The notes under the pieces were generated by a model that was given only the letters and a program-made list of their open reading frames with translations, searched no databases and had not been told where the DNA came from. A stretch of DNA of 39,383 nt from an uncultured Bacilli bacterium. Its GTDB lineage: Bacteria > Bacillota_I > Bacilli_A > RF39 > UBA660. Positions 1 through 20,649 of the stretch are shown piece after piece; the stretch's first letter is position 1, and each line of letters opens with the position of its first letter. A program made the position numbers and the translations under genes. Where the stretch lies: contig CALVYO010000001.1 in NCBI GenBank assembly GCA_944372275.1, forward strand, positions 1 to 39,383. The letters are read 5' to 3'.

Positions 1-71
1 TTAAAAGCATTAAACAATCCATCAAAAAAGATAGATATAAATTCGTAAAAAAATCTTAAAAATGTATTCAT
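1..71 (-). CDS. 5' end of a hydrophobic protein gene running off the left edge (partial)
   Basis: Minus-strand ATG at 69-71, 3 nt after the stop (75-77) of the upstream gene. It reads MNTFLRFFYEFISIFFDGLFNAF.. with no stop before the window edge. Only 23 codons are visible. Confidence 0.35.
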   Translation of the reverse strand, partial: MNTFLRFFYEFISIFFDGLFNAF

Positions 72-74
72 AAA

Positions 75-2117
75 CTAATTCCCCCAATAACTTCCTACTT
101 TACTTGCGATATCATCGTAAGCAATTTTATTGTGTAATTCTTCTTTTATTGATGACAAAACATCAATAGATTCAAACATTTTCCCTTTTACTCTTTTATC
201 GATAAAGATGTATTCCATCGCCTCTATAACACCTTGATCTTTTGTATTTACTTTAGAAGCTTTTAAATCAACAGCAAATTTATATCCATCTTTAATTAAT
301 GTTTTAATTACTTTTTTATTTCTAGATAATTCTTCATATTGCGCTAAAACGATGATGTTATTCTTTGCATATTCATCGGCAAATAAGTTAAATATTTTAT
401 CTAATTTATTTGTTTTAGTATATAAACTTTCTGGTAAATAGAATATATATTTTTTATTAAAATCCGCATTCAACACATCTTTAACAATTTGGACTAATAA
501 TAAAGTTAATAATACTTCTATTTTATCTTCGGCAACAATACCATCAGAATAAGTTTTATCAACAATATAATCACTATATACTTTACTAAAATTAATATTA
601 TGGTTTAATTCAACTGCATAAATATTTTTAATTGATAAAGCATTATAATTTAATTCAAACAAAGTTGTTTCTAATTTTTCCAAAACTACTTTAATAGCAG
701 ATTTATAAGTCTTTTGAATTTTTAAAATCTTACTTATCATTTCATTGATTGTTTTTGGATCAACTTCAGTACCGATATATTTAATCATTTTATTTTTATA
801 AGTTTGTTTTTTTATTTTATTGTCATCGATAACTAAATATGTATGTTCTAAATGTATTAATAAAGTAAAGATATTAGTATATTTTTTTACCTTTTCACTA
901 TACTTATTATCAGTTCCTTTATATGATTTTAACATTTTTTCTGCAGATTCTTTTAAAGCAGTTTCAAGTCTTACATTCATATTGCGTCCATTATATTCAA
1001 CATTGATGTCGCCACAATAATTATAGTATTTACCATCGATATAAATCTTTAAAAAATTATCTTTAATAGTTGCTTCATTTGTTTTTAATGGTTCTCCATT
1101 ATTTAAAACATCGATTATCTCTTTTATTTCTTCCTCTTTCATAAACATTACTTTTTCAATAATATTTTTGAATTTTTTCTTTTTATTTTGTAACATTTCA
1201 AGTTTTAATTCAACTTCGTCAACTTTTTCTTCTTCATCTTTTTCCACAACTACTGGTTCTTCTTCAACTTCAATTTTTTTAGCATAAGCATTTTCGATTT
1301 CATCTTTATCTACTTGAATCATTCTAAAGTACATTGTTTTATCTAAATCTTCTGCTTCTAATGGTTTCAAATCGGTAATTGTTTCGTCAATATTTTCATC
1401 TTTAACTTCTTCAACTTTTGTAACTTTTACTTCATTATTTTCTTCTTTAATTTCATTTTTGATAACTTCTTTAGGTTTTAATTCTTCTTTAACATAATTA
1501 TCGTTAACTATTTTCTTATTATCTTTTTTTATTAACTTAATAATATTTTTACTAAATATTTTTAGTTTTTTCATTATATTTGCAACAATAATATCTAACT
1601 TACTCATCTTCTTTTCCTTCTTATTCTTTTTAAATGTTAAATTAACTAAATAAATAGTTATAATAATTGCTATTAAAACAATTGGATTAAAAATAGTTTT
1701 CTTAAATATTCCAAATGCTGGTAATATTTTTACAACTTTACCGACAATTTGTTCTTGTGTAATCGGATCATCTTTAGCATCGTTGGCATCACCTTTAGTA
1801 ACAAAAGTTCCTTGATATGCTTCAATAACACGATGGGTTATAAACTCACCATCTTGTTTAAAAGTAACAATATCATCTATTTTTATATTTCTTGAATATT
1901 TAACTACGATCCAATCTCCAGGTTCTACTGCTTCGCCCATACTACCAGTTTGAACTTCAAATACAGAATAACCAAAGAAACTTGAATAGTCATTACCTAA
2001 TAATTTTACTTGAATGTTGTTATAAATTGAAATCAATAAAACAACACCAAAAATAAAAATCAATATATTTAAGACAACATTAATAATTTTATCTGATATT
2101 TTTCCTTTATTTACCAT
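75..2117 (-). CDS. sipW: SipW-type (ER/archaeal-type) signal peptidase I fused to a ~500-aa cytoplasmic C-terminal extension
   Basis: 680-aa ORF. An N-terminal TM helix is followed by QTGSMGEAVEPGD (Ser box), FITHRV (His box) and TKGDANDAKD (Asp box), as in B. subtilis SipW. A second TM follows (IFNPIVLIAIIITIYLVNLTF). Then come a ~170-aa K/E-rich low-complexity linker and a ~340-aa globular region that ordinary SipW lacks. Confidence 0.85.
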   Translation of the reverse strand: MVNKGKISDKIINVVLNILIFIFGVVLLISIYNNIQVKLLGNDYSSFFGYSVFEVQTGSMGEAVEPGDWIVVKYSRNIKIDDIVTFKQDGEFITHRVIEAYQGTFVTKGDANDAKDDPITQEQIVGKVVKILPAFGIFKKTIFNPIVLIAIIITIYLVNLTFKKNKKEKKMSKLDIIVANIMKKLKIFSKNIIKLIKKDNKKIVNDNYVKEELKPKEVIKNEIKEENNEVKVTKVEEVKDENIDETITDLKPLEAEDLDKTMYFRMIQVDKDEIENAYAKKIEVEEEPVVVEKDEEEKVDEVELKLEMLQNKKKKFKNIIEKVMFMKEEEIKEIIDVLNNGEPLKTNEATIKDNFLKIYIDGKYYNYCGDINVEYNGRNMNVRLETALKESAEKMLKSYKGTDNKYSEKVKKYTNIFTLLIHLEHTYLVIDDNKIKKQTYKNKMIKYIGTEVDPKTINEMISKILKIQKTYKSAIKVVLEKLETTLFELNYNALSIKNIYAVELNHNINFSKVYSDYIVDKTYSDGIVAEDKIEVLLTLLLVQIVKDVLNADFNKKYIFYLPESLYTKTNKLDKIFNLFADEYAKNNIIVLAQYEELSRNKKVIKTLIKDGYKFAVDLKASKVNTKDQGVIEAMEYIFIDKRVKGKMFESIDVLSSIKEELHNKIAYDDIASKVGSYWGN

Positions 2118-2198
2118 ACTATATCAACCCTATCTTCGACTCTTTTCATACTATATATAATTTTACCATATTCGACATTTTTTTACAATACAAAAAAT

Positions 2199-2223
2199 CA
2201 AAAAAAAGAATGTTTATTCATTC
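2199..2223 (-). terminator. weak intrinsic terminator after the 534-aa gene
   Basis: Minus strand reads GAATG-aataaa-CATTC followed by TTTTTTTT. The stem is only 5 bp and the stop codon lies in the loop. Confidence 0.35.
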
Positions 2224-3818
2224 TCTTTAATTTCTTTAGCAATAATTTTTTCAACTTGAACCATAAACCAAATTTTTTCAACAGAAGTTTCACTTTTTTC
2301 AATTTTACTAACTCGTAATATTAACAATATTTTATTAAGTAGAGTTTTTAAACTATCTTCGTTTAAATCATCTTCAGTAATATTAATACTATTTAAACGG
2401 TATTTGTTACTAATTGTCTTAGCAATATTATTTTCTTTAAAAATTGGTACTCCTGTAATAATAATATTGGTTGGATTCATCGCAAACAAATCAAAATTAT
2501 CGCTATATTTAATAATTTCTTCATATTCTGTCATATTATAAATTTTTTGAATAGTTAATTTTTTAAAATAATCAAAACTATAATATAAATGCAAAACATC
2601 AGAAATAGTTAATGTTTCAGTTAATACCATCATTATTTTATCTTTAAAATATTCAATATCGTAAGTTTTATATAACTCATATAATTCATTAGCCTTCATA
2701 ACCGATTGCAGTTTTAATTGTTTTAAACCACTATCTGATCTAAATTCAAACAAACCGGGACGACCACTGAATATTTTTTTATTTAATTTTTCTAATTCAT
2801 TTTCTTTATTTTCAATTTCATCAATAATAGTTTTTAAACCTTTATACTCTTTCTTATCAGTAGCCAATAATTTTTCGTATTCATCTTTAAAATGTTTAAA
2901 AATAGGATAAAATTCTAAATAATTTTGATATTCTATAACATTCAACTTCAATTTTTCTAAAGCAGGTAATACTTTTTCAACATCTTTAACCTCAGGAATT
3001 AAAGATTCAAAAGCAGTTTGTCTTCCTTTACTATCATTTAAATATTGTTCGATATCTAATTCTTTAGTTTTTGCCATAGCAATTATATCACTGATAGTTT
3101 CTTTACTTGCTATATTTAAATCAATATAAGCATCTTGTAATTTTTCTAAACAATGAGCGTAATCCTTAATATTATTTTTATCCATAACTTCTTTTTGAAG
3201 TTCTAAAATATAATGATTTAATTTTCGACCATTCTTTTTAATTAATTTTCTAAAATTTAATTCAATATGGTGGATAAGTTCAGGATTAACCCAATATATT
3301 TGTTCAAAGATTTCTGAAACTTTATCATAACTATCTAATCTTCGATTACGAACTTCTAAAAAAGCAGTCATATATTCGTGAACATAACAAGTATAATTGA
3401 AATCATCACTTTCTAGATGGATACCTGCTTGTTCAAATTTATCTAAGAAACCATTTATAATTTCATTTAAAGATTTAAAATTAAATGTATCATAATTATT
3501 AATTTGATATAATAACTCATCAAAACACATTTTTTCTAAATATGTATTAGTTGGATTTAAAAGAAATTTAACATTTTCTAATTTTTCTAGCCTTTCTGTC
3601 AATTTATCTAAATCAGATGTTTCTTTTATTTCAAAACTTTTCGCTTTAGCAATTAAATAATTTCTTGTATTTGTTTGATATTCTTCATATTTTTTAATAA
3701 TTTCATCGATTGTTTCATTGAATTTTTTCTTATTTGTTTTCGTCTTAGTTGGCATAGTGGAAATCAATGTCTTTTTAGCCTCAATATCTTTATTAATAAA
3801 ATCTAAAAAATTATTCAT
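2214..3818 (-). CDS. hypothetical 534-aa soluble, K/E-rich, probably coiled-coil protein; no signal peptide or TM
   Basis: Long uninterrupted ORF. Its ATG overlaps the stop of the upstream 47-aa ORF (ATGAATAA). No recognisable catalytic motifs. Confidence 0.8.
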   Translation of the reverse strand: MNNFLDFINKDIEAKKTLISTMPTKTKTNKKKFNETIDEIIKKYEEYQTNTRNYLIAKAKSFEIKETSDLDKLTERLEKLENVKFLLNPTNTYLEKMCFDELLYQINNYDTFNFKSLNEIINGFLDKFEQAGIHLESDDFNYTCYVHEYMTAFLEVRNRRLDSYDKVSEIFEQIYWVNPELIHHIELNFRKLIKKNGRKLNHYILELQKEVMDKNNIKDYAHCLEKLQDAYIDLNIASKETISDIIAMAKTKELDIEQYLNDSKGRQTAFESLIPEVKDVEKVLPALEKLKLNVIEYQNYLEFYPIFKHFKDEYEKLLATDKKEYKGLKTIIDEIENKENELEKLNKKIFSGRPGLFEFRSDSGLKQLKLQSVMKANELYELYKTYDIEYFKDKIMMVLTETLTISDVLHLYYSFDYFKKLTIQKIYNMTEYEEIIKYSDNFDLFAMNPTNIIITGVPIFKENNIAKTISNKYRLNSINITEDDLNEDSLKTLLNKILLILRVSKIEKSETSVEKIWFMVQVEKIIAKEIKENE

Positions 3819-3971: not shown

Positions 3972-5018
3972 CTATTCATATCCTTGTGTATCTTTAATAA
4001 AATTCAATGAAATATATATTTCAGCACCATCAGAATCTGTTTCCAAACTATCGATATCTTGTCCTTCAATCCAAACATAAACACGAGTTTTGGTAATACC
4101 GTCTGGAACTGTAAACAATGGTACTTCAAAATCTTCATCAGTCATCGTTTCTTGTAGTTCAAAATAATTTGGATCAAGATTTGGTGAACCTGATACTGTA
4201 TTAGCAACAAATATTGGTCCACCAGCCCTAGTAAATGCATAAGTTGGAAATTCTTGGCCATTTACTAAATTAACGCCATACTTTGTTGCTCTTTCAATTG
4301 ATAAATCTGAATGATCTTTGCTATTTGGCTCAAAAATAATCGAATAACAATTATTATTACAAGATATATTCTGAACTTCAGTAGCAGAAGCATCTTTAGC
4401 AACAGACCCCATTTTAACAATTCCAACTCGTGAAGAATTTAATAAACCGACCATTTCTTCATCAGGATTTTCTTCAATTGTAATTGAAGTTCCATAATCA
4501 AAATACAAATTATCACTAGTTGGTGATCCTGAATCATTTTTAAAAAACAAATCAAATGCTATATAGTTATTGTACTCATTTCTTCCACCTTCATGCATTA
4601 AATTAGTCCGTACATAACCATTTTCTTTATCTTTATTAGGATACCTAACACCGCTACTTGCAAACATATTAAATATTGGACTATCGTGATTAGTTATTCC
4701 ATTTGAAGAAATAGGAACTAAACCTCCACCAGCCCATTGACTAGTATTATTAGGATAAGTATATCTTAATCCTCTAATAAGTTCATCAGCTGATATAACT
4801 ATATCAGTATCAAAATTAATGCCATCTAATGAGATTGATAATCCCGTATTCTTTTTAACTGTCATTGTAAATGTTTTTACTCTAACATTTAAATTGGTTG
4901 AAAACCACGCATATGTTGAAAAAATAAGCAAAATACCTATTATTACCATAATAGTAATCGTTACTTTTTTGTTAGTTTTTTCAATTATTCTTTTTTTTAA
5001 AGTATTTTGTTTTTTCAT
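3972..5018 (-). CDS. secreted TasA/camelysin-like fibre-subunit paralog, class D (D1, 348 aa)
   Basis: Basic N-terminus, TM helix, then FSTYAWFSTN. Shares GLSISLDG, GGLVPISS, YIAFDLFFKNDSG, FEPNS, PTYAF and ITKTRVYVWIEGQDID blocks with the B and C proteins. RBS is GGTGGTGA. Confidence 0.8.
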   Translation of the reverse strand: MKKQNTLKKRIIEKTNKKVTITIMVIIGILLIFSTYAWFSTNLNVRVKTFTMTVKKNTGLSISLDGINFDTDIVISADELIRGLRYTYPNNTSQWAGGGLVPISSNGITNHDSPIFNMFASSGVRYPNKDKENGYVRTNLMHEGGRNEYNNYIAFDLFFKNDSGSPTSDNLYFDYGTSITIEENPDEEMVGLLNSSRVGIVKMGSVAKDASATEVQNISCNNNCYSIIFEPNSKDHSDLSIERATKYGVNLVNGQEFPTYAFTRAGGPIFVANTVSGSPNLDPNYFELQETMTDEDFEVPLFTVPDGITKTRVYVWIEGQDIDSLETDSDGAEIYISLNFIKDTQGYE

Positions 5019-5079
5019 TTTTCACCACCTAATTAATAAAGGAAGAGTAATTAACCAAATTACTCTTCTTTATTATCAA

Positions 5080-6402
5080 TTATTCACCATTTGTTGGAGT
5101 AATATCTGTACTTGGTCCATCATATCCTGGAATATCTGCTTCAGTATATCTTTCTTTAGTGAATCCAAAATTAACTGTAATTTTCTTTCCTAATGATGCA
5201 AAATCATAGTTATCTACATCTTGACCTTCAATCCAAATGTAAACTCTTACTTTTGTAATACTATTTGGCGCTAAAGTCATAAATTGTGGACGATCTTTAC
5301 CAGCTATATTTTTCATTGTATCAGTAAAGTATCCAATTCCAGCATCTTCATCATAAGTCATATCAACTAAATTATAAGTACTTCTATCATCATCATTATA
5401 ATAAGTTGTATAATCGATTGTTGATTTAGTATAACCATTGTATGCTGCGCCATCATAAATATTAATATTATCAGCAATAGCAATTTCATTACTTATTGCA
5501 TATGTTGGATATGCTTGATTTAATTCAACAGTAGCACAATGACTACCTGCATTATATGAAGCAGCATCATTAACATCATCACCATCTGCTTTTCTTGTTA
5601 AACAAGATTTATCATACCAATTAACAGCATTTTGCACATGCACAGAATCATTTGGTTCCCAAATTCTTGCTTCTCTACAAATACCGGTTACTTGAACTTG
5701 TCCATCAGCAGCAGGAACATCAGAACAAGTAATTTTTGTAATGTTACTTACAGATTCAGTATCTGCTTTAACACGACCAATTTGTGCGAATGCAACCCTT
5801 ACAGAATTTTCAATACCTGCTTTTTCTTCGCCATCAGCAGCAACAGTAACTGCAGAATTAGTAGTTAAATAAATTGCTTCTTCGTTTAATGGATTATTTT
5901 GAGTATAATATTCATTACCTGATAAGTTTTTAATGAATAAATCGAATGCAACATAGCCATTACCTTCAACATATTCAGCAGAACCACTACCAACTTGTGT
6001 AGTATGATTATCAACTTGACTAGCTAATAATCTATAACCACCTGTAACAGCAGTCAAACTTCCTTTTTCATATAATTTCATTCTTGAAGAATTTTTATCC
6101 ATATCACCTACAGATGACATTGGAATTAATCCTTCATCTTCGCCATCTAACCATTGGTTAGCATGTCCAGTATAAGCATCAGCATTTCTAGCATCTAAAG
6201 TATATTTCCATTTTTGACCATCCATTGATAGGTATAAGCCTTCAGTTGTTGCTATATTAACGCTAAATTCAGCTACATTAACAGTTTTCATACCTATAAA
6301 CCAAGCATAGGTTGAAACTGATAATAAGATAGCACATAAGCAACACATAGCAACTAAATTTCTAACTTTTTTGCTTTTTTTAGCATTATATTTTTTTGCC
6401 AT
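5080..6402 (-). CDS. secreted TasA/camelysin-like fibre-subunit paralog, class C (C1, 440 aa)
   Basis: N-terminus K-rich, TM, then SVSTYAWFIGMKTVNV. C-terminus reads ITKVRVYIWIEGQDVDNYDFASLGKKITVNFGFTKE. Four conserved Cys. RBS is AGGAGGAA. Closest paralog is C2. Confidence 0.85.
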   Translation of the reverse strand: MAKKYNAKKSKKVRNLVAMCCLCAILLSVSTYAWFIGMKTVNVAEFSVNIATTEGLYLSMDGQKWKYTLDARNADAYTGHANQWLDGEDEGLIPMSSVGDMDKNSSRMKLYEKGSLTAVTGGYRLLASQVDNHTTQVGSGSAEYVEGNGYVAFDLFIKNLSGNEYYTQNNPLNEEAIYLTTNSAVTVAADGEEKAGIENSVRVAFAQIGRVKADTESVSNITKITCSDVPAADGQVQVTGICREARIWEPNDSVHVQNAVNWYDKSCLTRKADGDDVNDAASYNAGSHCATVELNQAYPTYAISNEIAIADNINIYDGAAYNGYTKSTIDYTTYYNDDDRSTYNLVDMTYDEDAGIGYFTDTMKNIAGKDRPQFMTLAPNSITKVRVYIWIEGQDVDNYDFASLGKKITVNFGFTKERYTEADIPGYDGPSTDITPTNGE

Positions 6403-6428
6403 ATTTCCTCCTATATATAATTTTAGTA

Positions 6429-6459
6429 AACTAGAAGATTTTAATTAAATCTCCTAGTT
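6429..6459 (-). promoter_or_regulatory. intercistronic 12-bp hairpin between B1 and C1
   Basis: aactagaagatt (6429-6440) pairs with aatctcctagtt (6448-6459), giving one G-U on the minus-strand RNA. There is no U-tract on the coding (minus) strand. The B2-C2 junction has no equivalent. Confidence 0.45.
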
Positions 6460-6468
6460 ACTTATTTT

Positions 6469-7710
6469 TTATTCACCTGATGTTGGTCTCTTATCAACAT
6501 CTACTGGTAATTGTGGATCACCATCATATTCAATATCTTCACCATATAATTGTTCTTTAGTGAATCCGAATGAAACTGAGATTTGTCCTCCTAATGAAGC
6601 AAAATCATAGTTATCTACATCTTGACCTTCAATCCAAATATAAACTCTTACTTTTGTAATACTATTTGGTGCTAAATAGAATAATTCAGGTCTTTCAGTT
6701 CCTTTTAAATTTTTCATTGAATCTGTGAAAGTAGATACTTTCATTAATTTACCATCTTGTGCAGTAGTACTAACCGAAGTTGTCCAACTATTATATTCAG
6801 CGCCATCATATACATCTACTCCATCTGTATAATTAATTACACCACTTACTGCATATGTTGGAACGAATGTACCATCACTAACAGTACCACAAGTACCATT
6901 AAATGAAGCAGGATCTGTAATAGTTTGAGCAATTCTTTTTACACATGATGTAGTATACCAATTAATAGCATTTTGAACGTGTTTAGTATCGTTTGGTTCC
7001 CAAATTGTAGCATCACGATTAGCACAAATGGCAGATACACCATTACCACCAGTACAATCAATACCTTGAATTTTTGCAGTATTTTCTTCCGTAGCAATTA
7101 CACGACCAATTTGTGCGAAAGCAACTCTTACTGAATTTTCAATACCTGCAGTTTCTTCACCAGCAGCACCAGTTTTAACAGCTGATTGTGGAGTTAAATA
7201 AATTCCTTCTTCATTTAAAATATTAACTTCATCATAATATTCATTACCTGATAAGTTTTTAACAAATAAGTCAAATGCAACATAACCATCTTGTTCAGCA
7301 TCAGTATTTTCAACTTTACTTGCCATTACACGATAACCACCAGGTGAAGCAGTAAAGCTACCTTTTTCATATAAAATCAAATTTGATGAAGTAGTATCGA
7401 TTTTTCCAACTGATGACATTGGAATTAATCCATCACCACCCCAACTATTAGTATTTGTTAAATATGTTCCATCACCAGGAGTGTTATAATTATCTTCGTT
7501 AATTGTCACAGAATCACTGAAAGTCGTACCATCTAATGAAAGTGATAATCCATCGATAGCAGCAATTTTTACATCGAAAGCAGTAACATTAACAGTTTTC
7601 ATACCAATAAACCATGCATAGGTTGAAACTGATAAAATGATAGCACATAAACCAGTTCCAACAAGTAATCTTTTAACACGCTTTTCGTGTCTCTTATTTC
7701 TTTTTTCCAT
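6469..7710 (-). CDS. secreted TasA/camelysin-like fibre-subunit paralog, class B (B1, 413 aa)
   Basis: N-terminus MEKRNKRHEKRVKR, TM, then SVSTYAWFIGMKTVNV. C-terminus reads ITKVRVYIWIEGQDVDNYDFASLGGQISVSFGFTKE. Four conserved Cys. Confidence 0.85.
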   Translation of the reverse strand: MEKRNKRHEKRVKRLLVGTGLCAIILSVSTYAWFIGMKTVNVTAFDVKIAAIDGLSLSLDGTTFSDSVTINEDNYNTPGDGTYLTNTNSWGGDGLIPMSSVGKIDTTSSNLILYEKGSFTASPGGYRVMASKVENTDAEQDGYVAFDLFVKNLSGNEYYDEVNILNEEGIYLTPQSAVKTGAAGEETAGIENSVRVAFAQIGRVIATEENTAKIQGIDCTGGNGVSAICANRDATIWEPNDTKHVQNAINWYTTSCVKRIAQTITDPASFNGTCGTVSDGTFVPTYAVSGVINYTDGVDVYDGAEYNSWTTSVSTTAQDGKLMKVSTFTDSMKNLKGTERPELFYLAPNSITKVRVYIWIEGQDVDNYDFASLGGQISVSFGFTKEQLYGEDIEYDGDPQLPVDVDKRPTSGE

Positions 7711-7730
7711 ATGTACCTCTCTCTTTAAAA

Positions 7731-8429
7731 TTAATAATTTTCAACATACTCTGAATTAAAGTCCATATAAACAGAAAATTCACCACCTAAGATATCGTCT
7801 GTACATTCAGGATCACTACCTTCAACCCAAATGACAATTGTGTATTTATCGATATCTCCTGGTTTAAAATTATCAACCTTATTACGGGCAACTAAACTTT
7901 CTTCTAAAAATGCAGTCGTATCTGGCTCATTGGCTCCATTTTTAGCAGCTTTAGCATAAGTAATTTGGTCTCCATTACGATAAACTCTAATTCTAACAGC
8001 ATCGTCGATTTCTTTGATAACATCTGTGATAAAAAGTTCTCTCCAATAGCTAGTAATCTCATTTCCAATATTCTCAACAAAAAATGTGTAAGCAAGGTAT
8101 TCTGTACCGTTATGTGACCCCCCGTCACTTTCATTTAAATCATTAGGTAACCAATTACCAGATATATTTGTAAATGTCTTAGGTGAAGCGATTGATAATT
8201 CTGCTCGATACACTTTATAGTCTGGATCATCGTAAATGACAATACCTCTACTAAAGTATAAGTTTTTATCAAGTGTTATACTAAAATTACCACTATTATA
8301 AATAATACCTATAACCACATACAAAAGAATAAATAGGAAAAGGATTACTAATAAAGCTATTCGAAAGATTTTTTTGAGTTTTTTTTCAGTTTTGATTTTC
8401 TTTGAATTAAGCTTAATCTTGTTTTCCAT
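7731..8429 (-). CDS. membrane-anchored TasA-like protein, class A (A1, 232 aa), first gene of cassette 1
   Basis: K-rich N-terminus and a long TM (IFRIALLVILFLFILLYVVIGIIY), but no (S/T)-(Y/L)-(A/S) motif. C-terminus YTIVIWVEGSDPECTDDILGGEFSVYMDF resembles the B/C/D C-terminal strand motif. RBS is GAAGGGG. Confidence 0.8.
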   Translation of the reverse strand: MENKIKLNSKKIKTEKKLKKIFRIALLVILFLFILLYVVIGIIYNSGNFSITLDKNLYFSRGIVIYDDPDYKVYRAELSIASPKTFTNISGNWLPNDLNESDGGSHNGTEYLAYTFFVENIGNEITSYWRELFITDVIKEIDDAVRIRVYRNGDQITYAKAAKNGANEPDTTAFLEESLVARNKVDNFKPGDIDKYTIVIWVEGSDPECTDDILGGEFSVYMDFNSEYVENY

Positions 8430-9389: not shown

Positions 9390-10226
9390 TTAACTATTCT
9401 TTTCATTAAAATATAAATTTTTAATTCTATCTAAAGCATCTTTAATATATTGACAACTAATCTTATATTGTTCAAAAACAATTTCAAATCCATTTTCATC
9501 ATCACATACAAAATTCCAATAATCTTTACCAATCAATAATTCTTCATCACAAAAAAATTGTTGTACTCTTTCTTGTTTCCAAATTTTATCTTCACCATAT
9601 TTATTGTATGCTGTAGCAAAAAATATATTTATTTTATCGTCTGATTCCAATAATTTATTTTTTAACAAAAAATATTCTTGTAATAATTCACTTTTTTCTG
9701 CCTTAGCCTTTTTATTATCTAAATCACCACCTGATTTTAATTCTATTACATAATGTTCCTTAGTTGAAGGGTTATAAAAATAATTATCTGTTTCGTGAGT
9801 TTTCATATAACTTTCTAAATTTTTAGGTTGGACACAATAAAAGTTGTTATAATCTTCTACACTAGGTTTAACATGTTTATCATATTCAGTAAGCAAATAA
9901 TCAATGTGTTGAGTCTGCTGAGGTAATAAATATGATTCTATTTTTCCCCTTACTTCATAAGATAAATTAGCAATAGAATTTCCTATATTTTCCAACACTT
10001 TACCAAAACTAGAATCAAATGATCTAACAAAGGCTGAATAAAACATAAATTCTTTACCTAATTCAGCAATAAAAACATTATTTTTTTTAGAATTAATAAC
10101 ACCGTCCGGATTATTAACCTCAGAAGCATATCTAAGTTCGAAGCCTTCAGCAAAATTTTTTATTCCTAAATCAACTATCTGTTTTATTGCAGTAATTTTA
10201 TGCTCTTTTAATAATTCTTCGGTCAT
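9390..10226 (-). CDS. candidate type II restriction endonuclease (278 aa)
   Basis: Starts 3 nt after the methyltransferase stop, with RBS AAGGAGG. Contains a PD-(D/E)xK-like arrangement (..THETDNYFY..EHYVIELKSGGD). Specificity unknown. Confidence 0.55.
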   Translation of the reverse strand: MTEELLKEHKITAIKQIVDLGIKNFAEGFELRYASEVNNPDGVINSKKNNVFIAELGKEFMFYSAFVRSFDSSFGKVLENIGNSIANLSYEVRGKIESYLLPQQTQHIDYLLTEYDKHVKPSVEDYNNFYCVQPKNLESYMKTHETDNYFYNPSTKEHYVIELKSGGDLDNKKAKAEKSELLQEYFLLKNKLLESDDKINIFFATAYNKYGEDKIWKQERVQQFFCDEELLIGKDYWNFVCDDENGFEIVFEQYKISCQYIKDALDRIKNLYFNEKNS

Positions 10227-10228
10227 TT

Positions 10229-11362
10229 CTAATCCTCCTTGTAGTTAGTAATTATTAAATGTTCAACATTTTTATTATTTCTATTTTGAAAACTTACCAA
10301 ATATTTTTTGTCAAATGATGATATATAAAATCCAGCATCTTTATATAAATTATAAATAAATTCTGTATTTTTAATTATTAACATAAATTTTGCTTTTGTT
10401 TTTTTTAAATAATTAAACAACCTTATTTGATCATTTTTATTAAAATCATTTTGTGCATAAGTTGAAAATTCAGTATCATAAGGTGGATCTAAAAACATAA
10501 AATCTTCTTTTGTTAAATTTATTTTATTACAAAATTCTTCAAAATCTAAATTGTATATTTCAGTTTTTTTCATATAATTTTTTATTTTTTCAGATGAAAT
10601 ATAATCTATTTTCTTTTTAAAATCTTTCTTATTATAACTTATGCCACCATAAGGAACATTAAATTTTCCTTGTTTATTATACCTAAACATTGATGCATAA
10701 CAATACTCTCTAATAAAATAAAAAATGGCTGATGAAAATTCTTTATCAATATCTAATTCATTTCTATAATTATACAAATATCTAAAGTGCATATAAAATG
10801 CACTTTTTAATGCTGATTCTAAATTATCTAATATATTTTTTTCAGTAAGTTTTCCTTTTTCTTTTTCAATTTTATTCATTCGACAAATTTTAGAATAAAA
10901 ATTTTTTTGGATTTCGTGAATAAAATTGTCAATTCTTATATTAAAACTTTCAGTTAATACACCATTAAATTCACTTGAATGTTGAATAACAAAATCACAA
11001 ATTTTATCATTATATTTAATTTTTTTTATTTTATCGATAGATGTTTCTTTACAAAATTTTTTATATAAGTTTAGTAATTCTTTTGCATTATTATCTATAA
11101 TTTTTTCAAGTAACATCCAATTATGATATAGTTCATTTAATTTATTAATAAATTTTTTATTATTATCTTTTATATATTTATATAAATTTATTAATTCGTC
11201 AGACTTATCATTTATAATTGAATTATTACAATTTAATGCAAAGTATACTGCCCCACCGCCAACAAAAGGTTCAACATATCTTGTAAAATTTTTCGGAATA
11301 TTTTCTAAAATAACAGATAATTCTTTTTCTTTGCCACCAGCCCATTTAATAAATGATTTCAT
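10229..11362 (-). CDS. Dam-class (alpha-group) N6-adenine DNA methyltransferase
   Basis: FIKWAGGKEKE and EPFVGGGAVYF (AdoMet motif I region) lie near the N-terminus, and FLDPPYD (motif IV) near the C-terminus. The start is trimmed to the ATG at 11362 (MKSFIKWAGGK) behind GAGGTG. The ORF-track start at 11404 has no RBS. Confidence 0.85.
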   Translation of the reverse strand: MKSFIKWAGGKEKELSVILENIPKNFTRYVEPFVGGGAVYFALNCNNSIINDKSDELINLYKYIKDNNKKFINKLNELYHNWMLLEKIIDNNAKELLNLYKKFCKETSIDKIKKIKYNDKICDFVIQHSSEFNGVLTESFNIRIDNFIHEIQKNFYSKICRMNKIEKEKGKLTEKNILDNLESALKSAFYMHFRYLYNYRNELDIDKEFSSAIFYFIREYCYASMFRYNKQGKFNVPYGGISYNKKDFKKKIDYISSEKIKNYMKKTEIYNLDFEEFCNKINLTKEDFMFLDPPYDTEFSTYAQNDFNKNDQIRLFNYLKKTKAKFMLIIKNTEFIYNLYKDAGFYISSFDKKYLVSFQNRNNKNVEHLIITNYKED

Positions 11363-11394
11363 TTTAAACACCTCATTTTTTGTGTTACATAAAT

Positions 11395-11423
11395 ATACTA
11401 TCATACAAACATATGTATGTCAA
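11395..11423 (-). promoter_or_regulatory. promoter of the R-M operon
   Basis: Minus strand reads TTGACA (11418-11423), 17 nt, TAGTAT (11395-11400). Confidence 0.5.
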
Positions 11424-11457: not shown

Positions 11458-11997
11458 TTATTCTTCAACATCAACTTCATCGCCATATTTAATTTCAACG
11501 ATTAATGCATATAATTCATATATAAATATTAAGAAACAAGGTACTAATACGATGAATAAAAATCCCCATTGTGATTCTATTATATTTAATACTGTTCCGA
11601 TATCATTATATACTTTAGTAGGACGACCAATTAAATATTTTAATGAATATGGATCACCATTTTCTAGAGTAATTACTTGATTATCAACATTAACTTCTCC
11701 TACTTTACCAATGTTGATGTCAGCTGTTTTAGACATTTGATCTACTTTATAAACAAACACTGTTTCGCCTACTTGCAAATTTTCTGGTGCCGCTTCTTCA
11801 ACTAATACTAAATCACCCTTTTGAAAATCCTCATGGCTTACTTTATCTTTTAAAATTACTAATGAAGTTTCACCAAATACGGTTACACGATAGTCATTAA
11901 AGTTTAATAATAAAACTGTCATAACTAAAGCGAAAGAAAAATAAATTACTCCAAATGTTACGATTAATACTTTTTTTATTGTTTTTAATGCTTTCAT
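11458..11997 (-). CDS. SipW-family paralog lacking the catalytic Ser and His boxes (pseudo-signal-peptidase, ~179 aa)
   Basis: Same architecture as SipW: N-terminal TM, beta-rich ectodomain, C-terminal TM (FLFIVLVPCFLIFIYELYALIV). Where SipW has SGSMEP this protein has VILKDKVSHED. Where SipW has THR(I/V) it has VFVYKV. The QKGDLVLV and ENGD blocks are retained. I prefer the start at 11997 (GGAGGT RBS); 12015 is the alternative. Confidence 0.65.
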   Translation of the reverse strand: MKALKTIKKVLIVTFGVIYFSFALVMTVLLLNFNDYRVTVFGETSLVILKDKVSHEDFQKGDLVLVEEAAPENLQVGETVFVYKVDQMSKTADINIGKVGEVNVDNQVITLENGDPYSLKYLIGRPTKVYNDIGTVLNIIESQWGFLFIVLVPCFLIFIYELYALIVEIKYGDEVDVEE

Positions 11998-12005
11998 AAT
12001 ACCTC

Positions 12006-12854
12006 CTAATTGCATTCTATTTCTAATAAAGAAAATTCATTTACATCATAAGTTGCTGATTTATCTACTTTATAAAATATGTAACTTAAATTATCTTTAC
12101 TAGGAATTTCTAAAATTATTTCATTAATATAACCATTTTGCATATTATAATTGGTTATATTATCTTTATCGATTCTTAATTTGTTAGCATCCCAATTAAT
12201 TTTTACACATTTTTTATCATCGGATGAATTTGTTATTGTTAGTCTATCATAATTATTAAAACTTTGATAAGTCATATCTGTTTTTTCAACTAATGTTTTA
12301 TCTTTTTTTAAAATAAATGTTCCGGTTAAAGTCTTTTCATATGGCTCAATACTTACTACTTCGATATCTGCAGTTACATTATCAGTTGCTATATCAAAAT
12401 AGATATCAGCAGTAGATTTTTGAATTACCCAATTATATCCCTTTGATTCGCAAGTTGCTTTATCAAAATCTGTCGTATCTACGCCATCATTTTTATTATT
12501 AATACAAGTATTATAACTTGATAATGTCCCATAATAAGTATTAGAATCAGTACCATTTATTTTGCAATCAGTACCATCTGATAATGTACAAGTAACTTTA
12601 TATTTTATGTCATAGTCTGTTATAGCTGCCTCATTTATTGAATTTGTTAAATTGAAATGAACGCTCGTTCCATCCCAAACATTATTGACATTTTTAACAT
12701 TATCACCTAGTTTATCACTACTTAAATAAAATCCTTGAGAATTTAAGTAGTAGTTCCATACTGAATTAGAAATGTACTTTGCTAAAGTTAAACCATTGGT
12801 TATTAATAATACTACAGTTAAAAGAACTACACCTATAATTAAATATTTTCGCAT
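12006..12854 (-). CDS. secreted protein with SipW-type signal (282 aa), Cys-rich
   Basis: Signal MRKYLIIGVVLLTVVLLITNGLTLAKYISN. Its ATG abuts the stop of the upstream gene (TAAATG) behind AGGTGA. Asn/Thr-rich mature part. Confidence 0.75.
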   Translation of the reverse strand: MRKYLIIGVVLLTVVLLITNGLTLAKYISNSVWNYYLNSQGFYLSSDKLGDNVKNVNNVWDGTSVHFNLTNSINEAAITDYDIKYKVTCTLSDGTDCKINGTDSNTYYGTLSSYNTCINNKNDGVDTTDFDKATCESKGYNWVIQKSTADIYFDIATDNVTADIEVVSIEPYEKTLTGTFILKKDKTLVEKTDMTYQSFNNYDRLTITNSSDDKKCVKINWDANKLRIDKDNITNYNMQNGYINEIILEIPSKDNLSYIFYKVDKSATYDVNEFSLLEIECN

Positions 12855-13391
12855 TTAATCACCTAACTTCTGCCAACTATTAATTTCTACATCGATAAAA
12901 TCAGCTAAATTTGTATATTCTAAAGAATTATATTCACTTGGAAATGTCAATTTTATTTTATAATTATCTAATATTTCTGTATTATGACTTAGTGTCTGAA
13001 CACTTGAATTACATACCAATTCATCAAATTCGTTTCGCGAATAAGTTTCATCACAATTCATTATTAATTCTTCTGATTCGCCTTCTTTATATAATTCAAT
13101 AGTTAAAGGCATAAAATGATATGTTTTTATAGTTATTTGATATTCAACTGTTACATTACTTAATTTTTCTTCTTTATTTGTAACAGAAAACATATATTCT
13201 TCGACACTTCCTGGATTTAAATTATTTAAGTTTAATTCTAAATGATCTAATTGTTTACTTTCGAAAACAAATTTAGCTATTTTTTGATCGACATTAATAT
13301 TACTATCGGAATAGAAGATAGAATATGTAACGCCAGTACCTAAAAATATTGCTATTAAAATGAATAGAATTATCAATACTTTATGTTTCAT
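12855..13391 (-). CDS. small secreted TasA/camelysin-like protein (178 aa)
   Basis: Signal ends in GTGVTYSIFYSD. LNPGSVEEYMFSVTN matches the l.PG....f.v.N strand typical of camelysin/TasA domains. Ends in EINSWQ. RBS is AGGAGGAG. Confidence 0.8.
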   Translation of the reverse strand: MKHKVLIILFILIAIFLGTGVTYSIFYSDSNINVDQKIAKFVFESKQLDHLELNLNNLNPGSVEEYMFSVTNKEEKLSNVTVEYQITIKTYHFMPLTIELYKEGESEELIMNCDETYSRNEFDELVCNSSVQTLSHNTEILDNYKIKLTFPSEYNSLEYTNLADFIDVEINSWQKLGD

Positions 13392-13400
13392 TTTCTCCTC

Positions 13401-16400
13401 CTATCTTACGATAAATTTCTTTTCTATTGTTCCTATTTTTGTAGTTCCATCATATAGTTCGAAAACAAATTTATAGCCACCTTGCATATTAATTAAATCT
13501 AATTGTTGTGGCAAAGTGTAATAATTATCAGTAATCTTATTTAATGATGTTGTTGTATAATTACCTAAATCAATCAATGTATAATCTTGATTATAAGCAG
13601 TTAATTGTTGTTTTTTATATAATGATACTCGAATATATGGATCAGTAAATGTTCCTGTTTTAGTTATATCAAAATTAACAATATCATCAGTAATTACATT
13701 ATTAAAATCTACATTAAAACCATAATCAGTAGTAATATTATTAGTAACAATTACTGGGATTGTAATTTCATTACTATATTCATTACCATACATTCCATCA
13801 TATGAGGATATAGCCTTAATTTTAATATAATATGTCCCGGATAATAACTTGCTATTATCAATTGATGTTGTTATTTCGATATTACCAATATCATTAATTC
13901 GAACTATACCATCATTATTTGGTGAATATTCTTTATTATTAACTTTAAAAGTTAGATTTTTTAAATATTCTTTAGCAACTATATTATCATTACTATCGAC
14001 TAATTTAATATTTAAACCAATTATCTTTTCAGCATAAGTTGTATCGATGATATCTTGACCATTAATCATTCCATAATTGATATTATGAGCAATATCGATT
14101 ATATTTGTTGAATCACTGTTATAAATTATTGAATTACTATAATTAGAACTAATCGTAATATTAGTTTCGCTATCGTATATATTAAATAATTTTTCAGTTT
14201 GTTTTAATGTTTTTATTATACCATCTTGATTATTTAACTCCATTGTAATATTTATATCTTCTAATGTTTCAACCGTATTAAATTCGATCATTAATGTGAA
14301 GTTTTCATTAATTTGACCAGTATAATTATTTTCATCAAATAAATTAGTTGAACCAACTTCACTAAATGAAGTTAATGGATAAGTTGTTATTAAAGTATCG
14401 ATGATATAAGTATAAACTTTATTTTTATTATTATCGATTAAAGTTAATTTAGTATTAAGTGGTAAAGCAATATTAGTTATAATACTATGTGTTTTTAAAT
14501 CATTATATTGATAATTAGAATTATAACTTAATTCTAATATCATTTTAGAATTGTTAGTTATATTATTGCTTGTAGTTATTTGATTAATTTGATAGCCTTC
14601 ATATATTATATATTCACTATTAACATAAGTTACATAATCGGCGTTATCGACTACTTTAGCATATAAAATATATGTTCCTTGATTATTTATTGTTACTTTA
14701 TCACTATAAGTATTCCAACTAACATTATTTAATTGTTCTTCAGTTAATACTTCTTGCGCTAAATGATATTCGATACTTTTTATACCAGATAAATTATCAG
14801 TAGCCGTTATCGTTATATCTTTACTTTCATTTATGTAATTTTTAATAATTGGTGTGGTTAAACTTTGCCAAGATTTATCATCCATACTAATAACCACATC
14901 TGAACCAGATAAATCTAAAATAATTAAATCTGTATTTAAATAATAAATATTATCGTTATTATCTACTACTTTAGCATATATAACATATTTTCCCTCATCT
15001 TTAATTTCGACGATATTTTCATAAGGGATCCAAGTTAAATTATTTATCTCAGCATTACTTAAAACTTTATCACTTATGTAATAACTTACTTCTTTAAAAG
15101 GTCTTAAAGCATCAACTTGTTCGATACTAAAAACCGTACTACTATTTAATTTAATTGTGTTTAATTCATAACCTAAATTATCCCAAGTATAAGATCCTAA
15201 ATGAATATTAGCGATTGGACTTGCAATATCATCAATAGCTAAAATCGGATAACTTCCTTCTTCATAAATCCAAATATTATCTTCATTATTAAGTAAATCA
15301 TCGTTATCGATAAATTCATTAAATTGTAAATTAGTTAAAACATAATCTTTAGTTTTTAAATTATTTATATCAGTTAAAATAGGACCAGTAACTAATCCTT
15401 CATTAACGATATTTCCTGAAGTATAATAAACATTTTCGATATTTAAGGTTTCATTTACATTATTAAATAAATATGTCGTATCAGTAGCAAAAGAATTTTT
15501 TAAATTAATTGTTCCATTTATATCATTTATTAAATAATCAGTAGTTCCAACACTATAACTTTTATCGATATTAGATGTACCATTTATACTTGTTACTAAG
15601 CCTGTTGTTGTATCTCCAGTAAGTGTTCCATTATTATAGGCTCTGTTAATATTGATATTATTTGTATAACCTAATAAACCACTACTTATTTTTCCATAAA
15701 TTGAACCTTTATTAATAACATTAGTAATAATCGTATCGTTTGCATTGGCAACAATACCACTAGTTATATTTGGATTATAAGTAACTTCATAAGTTAAATT
15801 AGAAATTAAAGTATTAGTATCAATAGTTATTTTATTTACTTTTCCTAAATCTAAACTAAATTCACCAGTAACTTCACTTTCATTAATTAAAATTGTATCT
15901 GTTATATTACCTTTAACAATTACATTAGTAATATTTCCTGCTATATAAGGAATAGCAATTTCGGTTAAACTACTTACTTCAGGAATGTCATAACTTTCTG
16001 TTTTAGTAGTTAATTCATTATTACTTACTACATAACCGTTATATAAAATATTAGTTAAAGATGCGTTAGTACTATCAGTAGCAATACCAGCAGTAACATT
16101 TCCACCATAAATCATCGCATTTTCAACATATAAATTACTTACATTACCACTTAAATTAGTAAACAAACCTACTTCTTCATTTTGATTAGTAATATATAAT
16201 CCATATATACGATATGAATTACCATTTAAATAACCTTTAAAATTATCTAAAGATTCAAATAGATTAATTGTTTTAATTTTAGTACCTGTATAATCTTTAT
16301 TATCATATACTTCATTAGTATATTCTTTTATGTAAAAAATCGTATTATTTATTTTATATTTAATTCCTTCTTCATCATAACTAAATATACCATCATTTAA

Positions 16401-16691
16401 AACAATATCATTATTTAATTCGAAATATGTATCTTGATAATCTTCAGTTTTAAGCATACTAGCAAAATAAGCAAGTTCATTACCATTTGAAATTATATAT
16501 GGATCAGTACTTGTTCCTGTTCCCTTTCGATAACTAGTAGCCACATTACCATCCCATACTTCAATTTCATTAATTGATGTTCTATTTTGATAGCGGGCCA
16601 AACTAGGTATCATAATTGATAAAATTAATATAAATACTAAAATCAAAATTAAATAATTTTGTTTAGGTATTTTATTTAATATACTCTTCAT
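13401..16691 (-). CDS. 1096-aa secreted beta-helix (GLUG-like) and Ig-like-repeat surface protein with SipW-type signal
   Basis: TM/signal ends in IPSLARYQNR. Then GTGTSTDPYIISNGNELAYFASML and VGLFTNLSGNVSNLYVEN-type repeats follow, suggesting a right-handed beta-helix or GLUG-type region. Two tandem ~90-aa repeats follow (..NNLTWIPYENIVEIKDEGKYVIYAKVVDNNDN.. and ..NNVSWNTYSDKVTINNQGTYILYAKVVDNADY..). No LPXTG or other wall-anchor motif. Confidence 0.8.
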   Translation of the reverse strand: MKSILNKIPKQNYLILILVFILILSIMIPSLARYQNRTSINEIEVWDGNVATSYRKGTGTSTDPYIISNGNELAYFASMLKTEDYQDTYFELNNDIVLNDGIFSYDEEGIKYKINNTIFYIKEYTNEVYDNKDYTGTKIKTINLFESLDNFKGYLNGNSYRIYGLYITNQNEEVGLFTNLSGNVSNLYVENAMIYGGNVTAGIATDSTNASLTNILYNGYVVSNNELTTKTESYDIPEVSSLTEIAIPYIAGNITNVIVKGNITDTILINESEVTGEFSLDLGKVNKITIDTNTLISNLTYEVTYNPNITSGIVANANDTIITNVINKGSIYGKISSGLLGYTNNININRAYNNGTLTGDTTTGLVTSINGTSNIDKSYSVGTTDYLINDINGTINLKNSFATDTTYLFNNVNETLNIENVYYTSGNIVNEGLVTGPILTDINNLKTKDYVLTNLQFNEFIDNDDLLNNEDNIWIYEEGSYPILAIDDIASPIANIHLGSYTWDNLGYELNTIKLNSSTVFSIEQVDALRPFKEVSYYISDKVLSNAEINNLTWIPYENIVEIKDEGKYVIYAKVVDNNDNIYYLNTDLIILDLSGSDVVISMDDKSWQSLTTPIIKNYINESKDITITATDNLSGIKSIEYHLAQEVLTEEQLNNVSWNTYSDKVTINNQGTYILYAKVVDNADYVTYVNSEYIIYEGYQINQITTSNNITNNSKMILELSYNSNYQYNDLKTHSIITNIALPLNTKLTLIDNNKNKVYTYIIDTLITTYPLTSFSEVGSTNLFDENNYTGQINENFTLMIEFNTVETLEDINITMELNNQDGIIKTLKQTEKLFNIYDSETNITISSNYSNSIIYNSDSTNIIDIAHNINYGMINGQDIIDTTYAEKIIGLNIKLVDSNDNIVAKEYLKNLTFKVNNKEYSPNNDGIVRINDIGNIEITTSIDNSKLLSGTYYIKIKAISSYDGMYGNEYSNEITIPVIVTNNITTDYGFNVDFNNVITDDIVNFDITKTGTFTDPYIRVSLYKKQQLTAYNQDYTLIDLGNYTTTSLNKITDNYYTLPQQLDLINMQGGYKFVFELYDGTTKIGTIEKKFIVR

Positions 16692-17036: not shown

Positions 17037-18368
17037 TTATTCATTTGTTGTTGGAACATCTGGTCCATCATAATCTGGGAAGTCAGATTGATTATATCTT
17101 TCCTTAGTGAATCCAAAGTTAATTGTAATTTTCTGTCCTAATGATGCGAAATCATAGTTATCGATATCTTGTCCTTCAATCCAAATATATACTCTTAATT
17201 TAGTAATACTGTTTGGAGCTAAAGTCATAAATTGTGGACGATCTTTACCAGCAACATTTTTCATTGTATCAGTAAAGTATCCAGTTCTTGTTGTTGCATC
17301 ATAAGTCATATCGATTAATTTCATATCAGCTTTTCCGCCTACTCCAGCAGAAGCAGCATTATATTCTACTAATGTTTTAGTATTAGCAGCATATTTATTA
17401 TAAGCTAAACCATCATAAACATTTACGTTATCAGCAATAACAATTTCACGACTAATTGCATATGTTGGATATGCAGTAGTTGTATTTAATGTAGCACAAG
17501 ATGTACCTTCTGAATAAGAACCTGCAGCATTAACATCTGCGCCTGTTCTTTCTAAACAAGATTCTTTATACCAATTTAAAGCATTTTGAACGTGTTTAGT
17601 ATCATTTGGTTCCCAAATAGCAGCATTACGGCAAATACCTGTAACGTGTTGTGGATTATTAACATCATCTTCACTATCAGCACAAGTCATACTTGTAACT
17701 AAATCTTGAATATCTTCATCATCAGTATCTAAAGCTGCACTAACGCGTCCTAATTGTACAAATCCAACTCTTACTGAGTTTTCAATACCAGCATTACCTT
17801 CACCATCTAAGGCAACAGTAACTGCTGAATTAGTATTTAAGTAAATTGCTTCTTCGTTTAAAACATTATCTTCTGGATAATATGCTTCACCAGATAAGTT
17901 TTTAACGAATAAGTCGAATGCTATATAACCATTACCTTCTTCGTATTCGATACCACCAGCATTTTGTGTAACGTTATTGTCAACACGACTTGCTAATAAT
18001 CTATAACCACCTGTAACAGCAGTTAAACTTCCTTTTTCATATAATTTCATTCTTGAAGATGCTTCATCCATCTCACCAATTGAAGACATTGGAATTAATC
18101 CTTCATTTGTTCCATCTAACCATTGGTTAGCATGGTTTGTATAAGCTGGTGTATTTTTAGCATCTAGAGTGTAACGCCAATCAGCTCCATCCATTGATAA
18201 ATATAACCCTTCAGTAGTAGCAATATTAATATCAAATTCAGTAACATTAACAGTTTTCATACCTATAAACCAAGCATAGGTTGAAACTGATAATAAAATA
18301 GCACATAAAGCACAAATTGAAACTAGATTTTTAATTTTTTTACTTTTCTTTAATTTTCTATTTTTCAT
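17037..18368 (-). CDS. secreted TasA/camelysin-like fibre-subunit paralog, class C (C2, 443 aa)
   Basis: SVSTYAWFIGMKTVNV, then ITKLRVYIWIEGQDIDNYDFASLGQKITINFGFTKE. Collinear with C1 along its full length. RBS is AGGAGGT. Confidence 0.85.
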   Translation of the reverse strand: MKNRKLKKSKKIKNLVSICALCAILLSVSTYAWFIGMKTVNVTEFDINIATTEGLYLSMDGADWRYTLDAKNTPAYTNHANQWLDGTNEGLIPMSSIGEMDEASSRMKLYEKGSLTAVTGGYRLLASRVDNNVTQNAGGIEYEEGNGYIAFDLFVKNLSGEAYYPEDNVLNEEAIYLNTNSAVTVALDGEGNAGIENSVRVGFVQLGRVSAALDTDDEDIQDLVTSMTCADSEDDVNNPQHVTGICRNAAIWEPNDTKHVQNALNWYKESCLERTGADVNAAGSYSEGTSCATLNTTTAYPTYAISREIVIADNVNVYDGLAYNKYAANTKTLVEYNAASAGVGGKADMKLIDMTYDATTRTGYFTDTMKNVAGKDRPQFMTLAPNSITKLRVYIWIEGQDIDNYDFASLGQKITINFGFTKERYNQSDFPDYDGPDVPTTNE

Positions 18369-18378
18369 CTTTTACCTC

Positions 18379-19776: not shown

Positions 19777-19791
19777 AATCCCTTCTTTCCC

Positions 19792-20587: not shown

Positions 20588-20649
20588 AAAATGTGATTTT
20601 TTTGTGAAAATGTACTGTCAATTTTGATATAATAAATATGGTGATAGTA

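Follow-up and report, generated by a model that had tools for sequence, protein, structure and literature searches.

A SipW-type signal peptidase fused to a cytoplasmic module with a predicted EAL-type fold, next to a membrane AAA+ gene in uncultured Bacilli

The fused signal peptidase gene

The stretch analyzed here (the window) is 39,383 nucleotides (nt) of contig CALVYO010000001.1 (assembly GCA_944372275.1) from an uncultured Bacilli bacterium, with a GC content of 21-34 %. Positions 75..2117 hold a single open reading frame (ORF) of 680 amino acids (aa) with an ATG start and a TAG stop; this ORF and all other features below lie on the minus strand unless marked (+). It encodes a SipW-type signal peptidase, a linker, a helical domain, and a predicted EAL-like domain, in that order. 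Kyte-Doolittle hydropathy (19-residue window, >1.6) places a first transmembrane (TM) helix or signal anchor at residues ~11-33 (2019..2087). A second TM helix at residues ~143-162 (1632..1691) is supported by hydropathy and by sequence, since it is followed by a basic KKNKKEKK stretch, and hydropathy of the 680-aa protein gives no strong TM segment beyond residue ~162. Between the two lies an extracytoplasmic S26B-type catalytic domain at residues ~45-135 (1713..1985), as evidenced by the TIGR02228 profile, by invariant residues, and by alignment with SEC11C.

The peptidase looks catalytically intact. Its Ser59 (codon 1941-1943), His95 (1833-1835), and Asp110 (1788-1790) belong to GSM, THRV, and KGDAN boxes that line up with SGSM, VHRV, and KGDNN of human SEC11C (7P2Q), and none of S59, H95, D110, and D116 varies among 29 homologues, the most distant at 49 % identity. 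With the N-terminal 167 aa as query, TIGR02228 (sigpep_I_arch) scores 72.2 bits (cut-off 51.85, E 4.3e-20), which places the N-terminus, as judged from its sequence, in the archaeal/endoplasmic reticulum (ER)-type signal peptidase I family (S26B/TIGR02228, "SipW-type"). The same profile gives no match when queried with the full-length protein, probably because of the biased composition of the linker. The sole match of the whole 680-aa protein is a weak one to Pfam Peptidase_S24 (E 1.3e-5).

By topology logic, the basic N-terminus, the two TM helices, and the KKNKKEKK stretch put the tail in the cytoplasm. A sequence-only reading of the window had described a SipW-type peptidase with intact Ser, His, and Asp boxes, whose ORF runs on for ~515 aa past the second TM helix as a cytoplasmic extension, and the invariant catalytic residues, the two strong hydropathy peaks, and the topology all bear this description out. 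The same reading had likened the extension to the tail of Bacillus subtilis SipW, a protein reported to be bifunctional and to have a short C-terminal tail (Terra et al. 2012, as far as PMC4551309 relates it). That parallel holds as an analogy only. The N-terminal 165 aa do share their fold family, their Ser/His/Asp boxes, and their two-TM topology with B. subtilis SipW, S26B, and SEC11, and the gene, like that of B. subtilis SipW, is clustered with genes for proteins with TasA-like signal peptides. However, the protein has 680 aa instead of ~190, its 515-aa cytoplasmic extension is predicted to be a structured module of two folded domains, and it is not the Bacillus SipW equivalog, as NF046067 gives 49.7 bits against a cut-off of 190.

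Two further claims of the sequence-only reading, an extended -10 promoter of the gene's own and a weak terminator ahead of it, are not supported. The promoter-like site (TTGTAA-17-TAAAAT with a TG-extended -10, 2160..2188) is a consensus match only. Consensus sites are no commoner in the region than chance allows in DNA of 22-25 % GC (35 observed, 35.4 expected from shuffles), and the site is therefore no evidence of a promoter. The hairpin at 2200-2223, which overlaps the upstream stop codon, has a 5-bp GAATG/CATTC stem with 2 GC pairs and a T8 run, and it falls below the scan threshold. The ORF is not isolated, with the next gene beginning 3 nt past its stop.

The fusion of peptidase and tail is real and conserved. 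The identical 680-aa sequence is present on 4 contigs, and ENA, Logan, and NCBI assemblies together contribute the 9 members of its 90 % cluster. A database search returned 856 relatives, the best 120 of them nearly all 650-715 aa long with full-length coverage, and full-length homologues number in the hundreds, with identity down to 36 %. A scan of species representatives, to which each species contributed a single genome, recovered relatives in 96 genomes, and 80 loci from these were retrieved and examined. All 80 come from metagenome-assembled genomes or uncultured isolates; the labels are mostly Bacilli, Tenericutes, or Mollicutes, and one is Candidatus Coprovivens. No source annotation accompanies the 16 cluster members consulted, 9 of which are in the cluster of the window protein. 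Peptidase and tail form one near-full-length ORF in 74 of the 80 loci (603-814 aa; 644-814 aa for complete ones). In the remaining six the ORF is cut by a contig end, except at one locus (L047) where the gene is split into 107 and 592 aa. Outside these fusions the C-terminal part is a separate gene in a minority of lineages, and there it belongs to the same operon. Comparison with an 83 %-identical orthologue gives ratios of nonsynonymous to synonymous substitution (Ka/Ks) that are lowest in the peptidase (0.055), higher in the EAL-like (0.09) and helical (0.10) domains, and highest in the linker (0.27), pointing to purifying selection on every segment of the ORF.

The cytoplasmic tail

The first part of the tail is a Lys/Glu/Asp-rich linker at residues 163-305 (1203..1631), defined by composition, Ka/Ks, and a gappy alignment. 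Lys, Glu, and Asp make up 48 % of residues 166-335 and an ordinary 28-33 % of the rest of the tail, as anticipated from the sequence by the description of a ~170-aa Lys/Glu-rich stretch followed by ordinary composition. The linker is predicted to be disordered where it was modelled (residues 250-305; predicted local distance difference test score, pLDDT, 35-53), and its length varies between homologues, as seen in the gappy alignment and in total protein lengths of 644-814 aa. Within this otherwise poorly conserved, disordered segment lies a conserved island of ~20 residues, EDLDKTMYFRMIQVDKDEI, at residues 255-275 (1293..1355), in which T261, R265, and V269 are invariant. The island is kept in membrane-tethered versions of the tail, including one with a non-SipW anchor (DFDKT...), and is missing from stand-alone versions. 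It is a possible short docking motif.

The remainder of the tail consists of two predicted domains. An AlphaFold2 model of residues 250-680 (pLDDT 77.5) has a disordered N-terminal stretch, a helical region at ~300-482, and an alpha/beta region at ~487-680. The sequence-only reading had pointed to this region as a target for such modelling, and the two domains are what the model adds to it. The helical domain is assigned to residues 306-480 (678..1202; pLDDT mostly 84-94). It carries a near-invariant motif, NE..I...Y..KYYNYCG, and has no Pfam, NCBIfam, or PDB sequence match. The alpha/beta domain is assigned to residues 481-680 (78..677) from AlphaFold2 and Foldseek and has ~7 strands. Modelled alone, on a deeper and more diverse alignment that includes relatives without the peptidase, the last 200 residues reach a pLDDT of 90.3 and a predicted TM-score (pTM) of 0.87.

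Structural comparison suggests the nature of this last domain. Foldseek searches of the PDB with the first model return EAL domains almost exclusively. With the domain-only model, 49 of the 49 best matches are EAL domains (E down to 3.7e-5, TMq 0.42-0.64, Foldseek probability 1.0 for nearly all), including FimX, LapD, Bd1971, MucR, PA3825, RocR, YkuI, and YdiV. The first non-EAL match, at rank 50, is a transaldolase with a probability of 0.69. The assignment of an EAL-type modified TIM-barrel fold to the last 200 aa is robust for a prediction.

Sequence methods give no such signal. The tail has no Pfam EAL match at E<=10, searches of Pfam, NCBIfam, and PADLOC find no family for it, and a PDB sequence search with the tail profile gives 0 matches at E<=10. 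Comparison by hhalign of a 232-sequence family profile with a 4-sequence EAL alignment, built from a typed consensus and validated against MorA, MucR, and PA0575, returns a probability of 0.1, that is, no signal. For one stand-alone homologue, Pfam EAL comes out at E 0.13, which does not reach the threshold. The EAL assignment is accordingly a structural one only. Matches of the tail to MOV-10 and SecA_PP_bind (E 0.1-0.2) were rejected as noise.

The fold appears to have been kept without the catalytic set of EAL domains. By approximate strand register, the catalytic and metal-binding positions (the E of EAL, R, N, ExxE, DD, K, E, and Q) correspond to VELNH, LPES, LAQYEE, AVDLK, FIDK, and AYDD. 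These positions vary among homologues and do not supply the EAL catalytic residues; phosphodiesterase activity is therefore very unlikely. E530, Y557, and G611 are the only residues of the domain that are invariant across the deep family. E530 sits in an "AEDK" motif reminiscent of the non-catalytic "AE" of EAL domains.

The downstream AAA+ gene and the surrounding cluster

The gene that follows the fused ORF is a constant feature of its surroundings. The window ends 74 nt beyond the stop codon of the ORF and contains the first 71 nt of this gene (1..71), which in relatives encodes a TM-anchored McrB-like AAA+ protein of 508 aa. At the junction, TAGtttATG, its ATG lies 3 nt past the stop. Among related loci, the AAA+ ORF starts between -8 and +17 nt from the stop of the fused gene in 72 of 74, and the two genes appear to be translationally coupled.

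The 508-aa protein and its partner resemble the McrBC system in part. In the protein, a TM helix and a coiled coil precede a McrB-type AAA+ core whose Walker A (GISGTGKTS), Walker B (ILDEMNLAR), and McrB-like GTINNDDS motifs are invariant, the last being of the NxxD-like type; the match to Escherichia coli McrB is weak (E 7e-4). The next gene encodes a 374-aa protein with DUF2357 (Pfam E 4e-11); one related locus holds both genes at L001:12047-14715. The pair differs from McrBC in several ways. An N-terminal TM helix and coiled coil stand in place of the DNA-binding domain, the C-terminal half of the DUF2357 protein has no conserved nuclease motif across 70 aligned orthologues, and the pair is embedded among genes for secreted proteins. 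In the AAA+/DUF2357 pair, a McrBC-type motor may have been put to a use other than restriction.

The distribution of the tail module (helical plus EAL-like domain) ties it to this gene. A profile search of 1.84 billion cluster representatives yielded 365 clusters. Among the 150 listed (50 %-identity representatives), 66 are fused to SipW, ~36 are stand-alone proteins of 320-335 aa with the helical and EAL-like domains, and 6 have another TM anchor, such as the non-peptidase anchor of P0210. The AAA+ gene directly follows the module in all three architectures: fused, stand-alone (L084, L086), and on the other anchor (L087). Where the contig extends, the DUF2357 gene, a further peptidase, and a secreted protein come next, whereas L086 ends within the AAA+ gene. 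At L084 the unfused module is preceded, at a distance of two genes, by a gene for a separate 169-aa SipW whose GSM box is intact. It is the AAA+ gene, rather than the peptidase, that the module accompanies. Overall, the arrangement is a classical Rosetta-stone pattern linking peptidase, module, and nucleoside triphosphatase (NTPase).

In relatives, the fused gene sits within a longer cluster. This comprises 348-aa and 534-aa genes, genes for secreted proteins of 1096, 178, and 282 aa, a short SipW paralogue, and the long SipW, followed by the 508-, 374-, and 184-aa genes and one for a 402-aa secreted protein, with a 203-aa gene in the opposite orientation. The lineage of the window departs from this layout: its cluster is rearranged, and a TdeIII/D12 restriction-modification pair breaks into it. 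Directly upstream of the 680-aa ORF is the conserved 534-aa gene of the cluster (2214..3818), whose product has no family match and, by eye, no N-terminal segment resembling a signal peptide. Four genes of 348, 440, 413, and 232 aa lie farther upstream (3972..8429). The 348-, 440-, and 413-aa proteins have TasA-like N-termini (a basic region, a hydrophobic region, and STYAWF) and are presumed substrates of the peptidase. N-termini of this type, basic, then hydrophobic, then [ST]-Y-A-W-F or similar, occur in at least nine neighboring proteins. The 440-aa and 178-aa proteins have no PDB sequence match, so that their likeness to TasA could be shown for the N-termini only.

The second half of the cluster in the window (11458..16691) encodes a 185-aa SipW paralogue and the proteins of 282, 178, and 1096 aa, which have similar N-terminal signal sequences and whose genes are directly 5' of the long SipW in most relatives. 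The paralogue (11458-12015) has lost the catalytic Ser, His, and Asp, scores only 21.8 bits with TIGR02228, and is an apparent pseudo-peptidase; in 45 of 74 related loci its gene is the immediate upstream neighbor of the long SipW. A third SipW paralogue, encoded 3' of the DUF2357 gene in relatives, has 184 aa, scores 81 bits as an archaeal-type signal peptidase, and is apparently active. The gene complement differs from tapA-sipW-tasA, where there is no NTPase, in having three SipW paralogues, one of them catalytically dead, together with an AAA+ NTPase.

Several other features of the neighborhood were recorded. The 1096-aa secreted protein (13401-16691), a possible tip adhesin, carries OmpL47-type beta-barrel/Ig-like repeats (NCBIfam E 5e-11), and most relatives keep its gene at the head of the cluster. 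A three-gene cassette is duplicated, with 440-, 413-, and 232-aa genes at 5080-8429 and 443-, 465-, and 230-aa genes at 17037-20484. The two larger protein pairs are 67-68 % identical, have STYAWF signal peptides, and are putative major subunits; the GC content of both copies, 0.30-0.34, is clearly above that of their surroundings, 0.21-0.26. The TdeIII endonuclease (Pfam E 1e-44) and D12 N6-adenine methyltransferase (E 1e-37) form a type II pair at 9390-11404 that splits the two halves of the fiber cluster in this lineage and at one related locus (L008) only. FtsK, enolase, MurD, RNase III, and LexA were recognized by eye as chromosomal housekeeping genes in the window. Also by eye, a 677-aa ABC exporter (31821-33854) has an N-terminus resembling a C39 peptidase domain, as in bacteriocin-type exporters, and a 196-aa membrane-anchored protein (20638-21228 (+)) has a staphylococcal-nuclease-like motif (GDT...DTPE).

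A candidate mechanism and its alternatives

One reading brings together the domain architecture, the conserved fusion, the predicted EAL fold without EAL motifs, and the constant, near-zero-spacing synteny with the AAA+ gene. The protein would be an active, dedicated signal peptidase that bears, on a tether, a helical/dead-EAL adaptor of a membrane AAA+/DUF2357 complex, a proposal that is tentatively preferred, with confidence somewhat short of even. The ER/archaeal-type catalytic domain would face outward and cleave the TasA-like signal peptides (...STYAWF...) of the surrounding fiber or adhesin subunits; both the activity and the substrates are presumed. After the second TM helix, the flexible charged tether would bear the cytoplasmic module. 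Rather than hydrolyze cyclic di-GMP (c-di-GMP), the module may serve as the adaptor of an NTPase complex at the membrane, which would be made up of the products of the next two genes, the TM-anchored McrB-like AAA+ protein and the DUF2357 (McrC-N-like) protein. We infer in this scheme a physical interaction of the module with the pair, as well as the role given to the NTPase. The fusion would then hold subunit processing beside the motor, coupling it to an energy-dependent step in secretion, assembly, or fiber control.

For the tail, scaffolding or coupling agrees better with the data than an enzymatic role of any kind. The sequence-only reading had proposed a regulatory or scaffolding tail, and in that respect it is supported in part; what falls is the view of the tail as an expanded version of that of B. 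subtilis SipW. That reading had also missed the predicted EAL fold, the unfused module, the constant AAA+/DUF2357 partner, and the two further SipW paralogues. As the linker varies in length and is predicted to be disordered where modelled, tethering is favored over allosteric control from inside to outside.

Several points weigh against the proposed adaptor role. The ~140-aa disordered linker makes tight mechanical coupling less likely and is just as compatible with simple co-localization of the peptidase and the complex. To our knowledge, the known TasA/SipW systems need no NTPase, so the proposed coupling is without precedent. The AAA+ core matches the PADLOC model PDC-M26A, a candidate defense protein, at E 1e-36. 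The EAL matches are at 10-16 % identity with TM-scores of ~0.5-0.6, on predicted models only, and the absence of the motifs is drawn from secondary-structure register, which is approximate, and from column variability. Finally, all carriers are uncultured.

The alternative that survives best is inside-out signaling of the kind mediated by degenerate EAL receptors. In LapD, a cytoplasmic EAL domain is coupled to control of an extracytoplasmic protease that acts on an adhesin. FimX controls a pilus ATPase through PilZ, and YdiV is a purely protein-binding EAL protein. These proteins are among the best structural matches of the domain, which in its predicted form shares with them the EAL fold without the catalytic set, and the tail may by analogy resemble such adaptors functionally. 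On this alternative, which is unlikely, the degenerate EAL domain binds c-di-GMP or another nucleotide and switches the outward peptidase or the AAA+ protein through the membrane; a dependence of fiber production on a second messenger, which would follow from it, is equally unlikely. The enrichment of the best Foldseek matches for degenerate c-di-GMP receptor EAL domains, FimX and LapD, and the retention of a handful of invariant polar residues (E530, K568, and K571) are consistent with it. On the other hand, conservation is lacking at the EAL signature positions, the EXLXR region among them, a long disordered linker of variable length poorly transmits a conformational change, and the module is unfused in other lineages. 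The domain also has no detectable sequence homology to LapD, FimX, or YdiV, is shorter (~200 aa, ~7 strands), lacks GGDEF, HAMP, or REC partner domains, and is fused to the protease itself by a disordered tether. A hidden Markov model scan of 1.37 Mb of related loci found no canonical EAL protein, but GGDEF was not searched and the sample is biased to this cluster, hence uninformative.

A second alternative derives from the likeness of the AAA+ protein to McrB and to a PADLOC candidate defense protein, from the position of the DUF2357 gene, which follows the AAA+ gene as McrC follows McrB, and from the occurrence of the module on a non-peptidase TM anchor (P0210). The module, the AAA+ protein, and the DUF2357 protein could form a McrBC-derived anti-phage or stress system that merely lies within a surface-protein locus, with SipW as a membrane anchor only. 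This is quite improbable. SipW paralogues and secreted proteins bearing TasA-like signals are encoded on either side of the triad, both in ~80 species and in deeper lineages. The supposed anchor has invariant peptidase residues and a Ka/Ks of 0.055, so selection acts on the peptidase itself. In addition, the DUF2357 protein lacks a conserved nuclease motif, the AAA+ protein has a TM segment where McrB has its DNA-binding domain, and the module and the DUF2357 protein match no PADLOC model. The idea that the ORF is an artefact, in which adjacent genes were joined by an assembly or sequencing error or by pseudogene read-through, has in its favor the split gene at L047 and is already effectively refuted by the identical protein on four contigs with its nine-member cluster, by the distant full-length homologues, and by the selection on each segment.

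A search of full-text literature gave no description of a SipW-EAL, SipW-DUF2357, or SipW-McrB association. The prevailing view takes SipW-type peptidases to be small processing enzymes that stand alone, and TasA-type fibers to assemble by themselves outside the cell with no energy source. A wider possibility, realistic though well short of probable, is that the cluster is an unrecognized NTP-driven machine for assembly of surface fibers or adhesins in wall-bearing, reduced-genome gut Bacilli. In such a machine, and with the same degree of doubt, a SipW-type peptidase would be wired to a membrane-anchored, nuclease-less McrBC-derived motor by a repurposed EAL-fold adaptor. Sortase pili, type IV pili, and passive TasA fibers would then be joined by a new class, with the first McrB-family AAA+ protein co-opted for envelope biogenesis.

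The predicted structure of the tail adds to the EAL fold a branch that is undetectable by sequence, and the downstream pair points to a possible non-defense use of a McrBC-like motor. Taken together, the conserved fusion, the three peptidase paralogues, one of them dead, and the always-adjacent membrane AAA+ gene point to an undescribed energy-coupled surface-fiber apparatus in a large group of uncultured gut and rumen bacteria.

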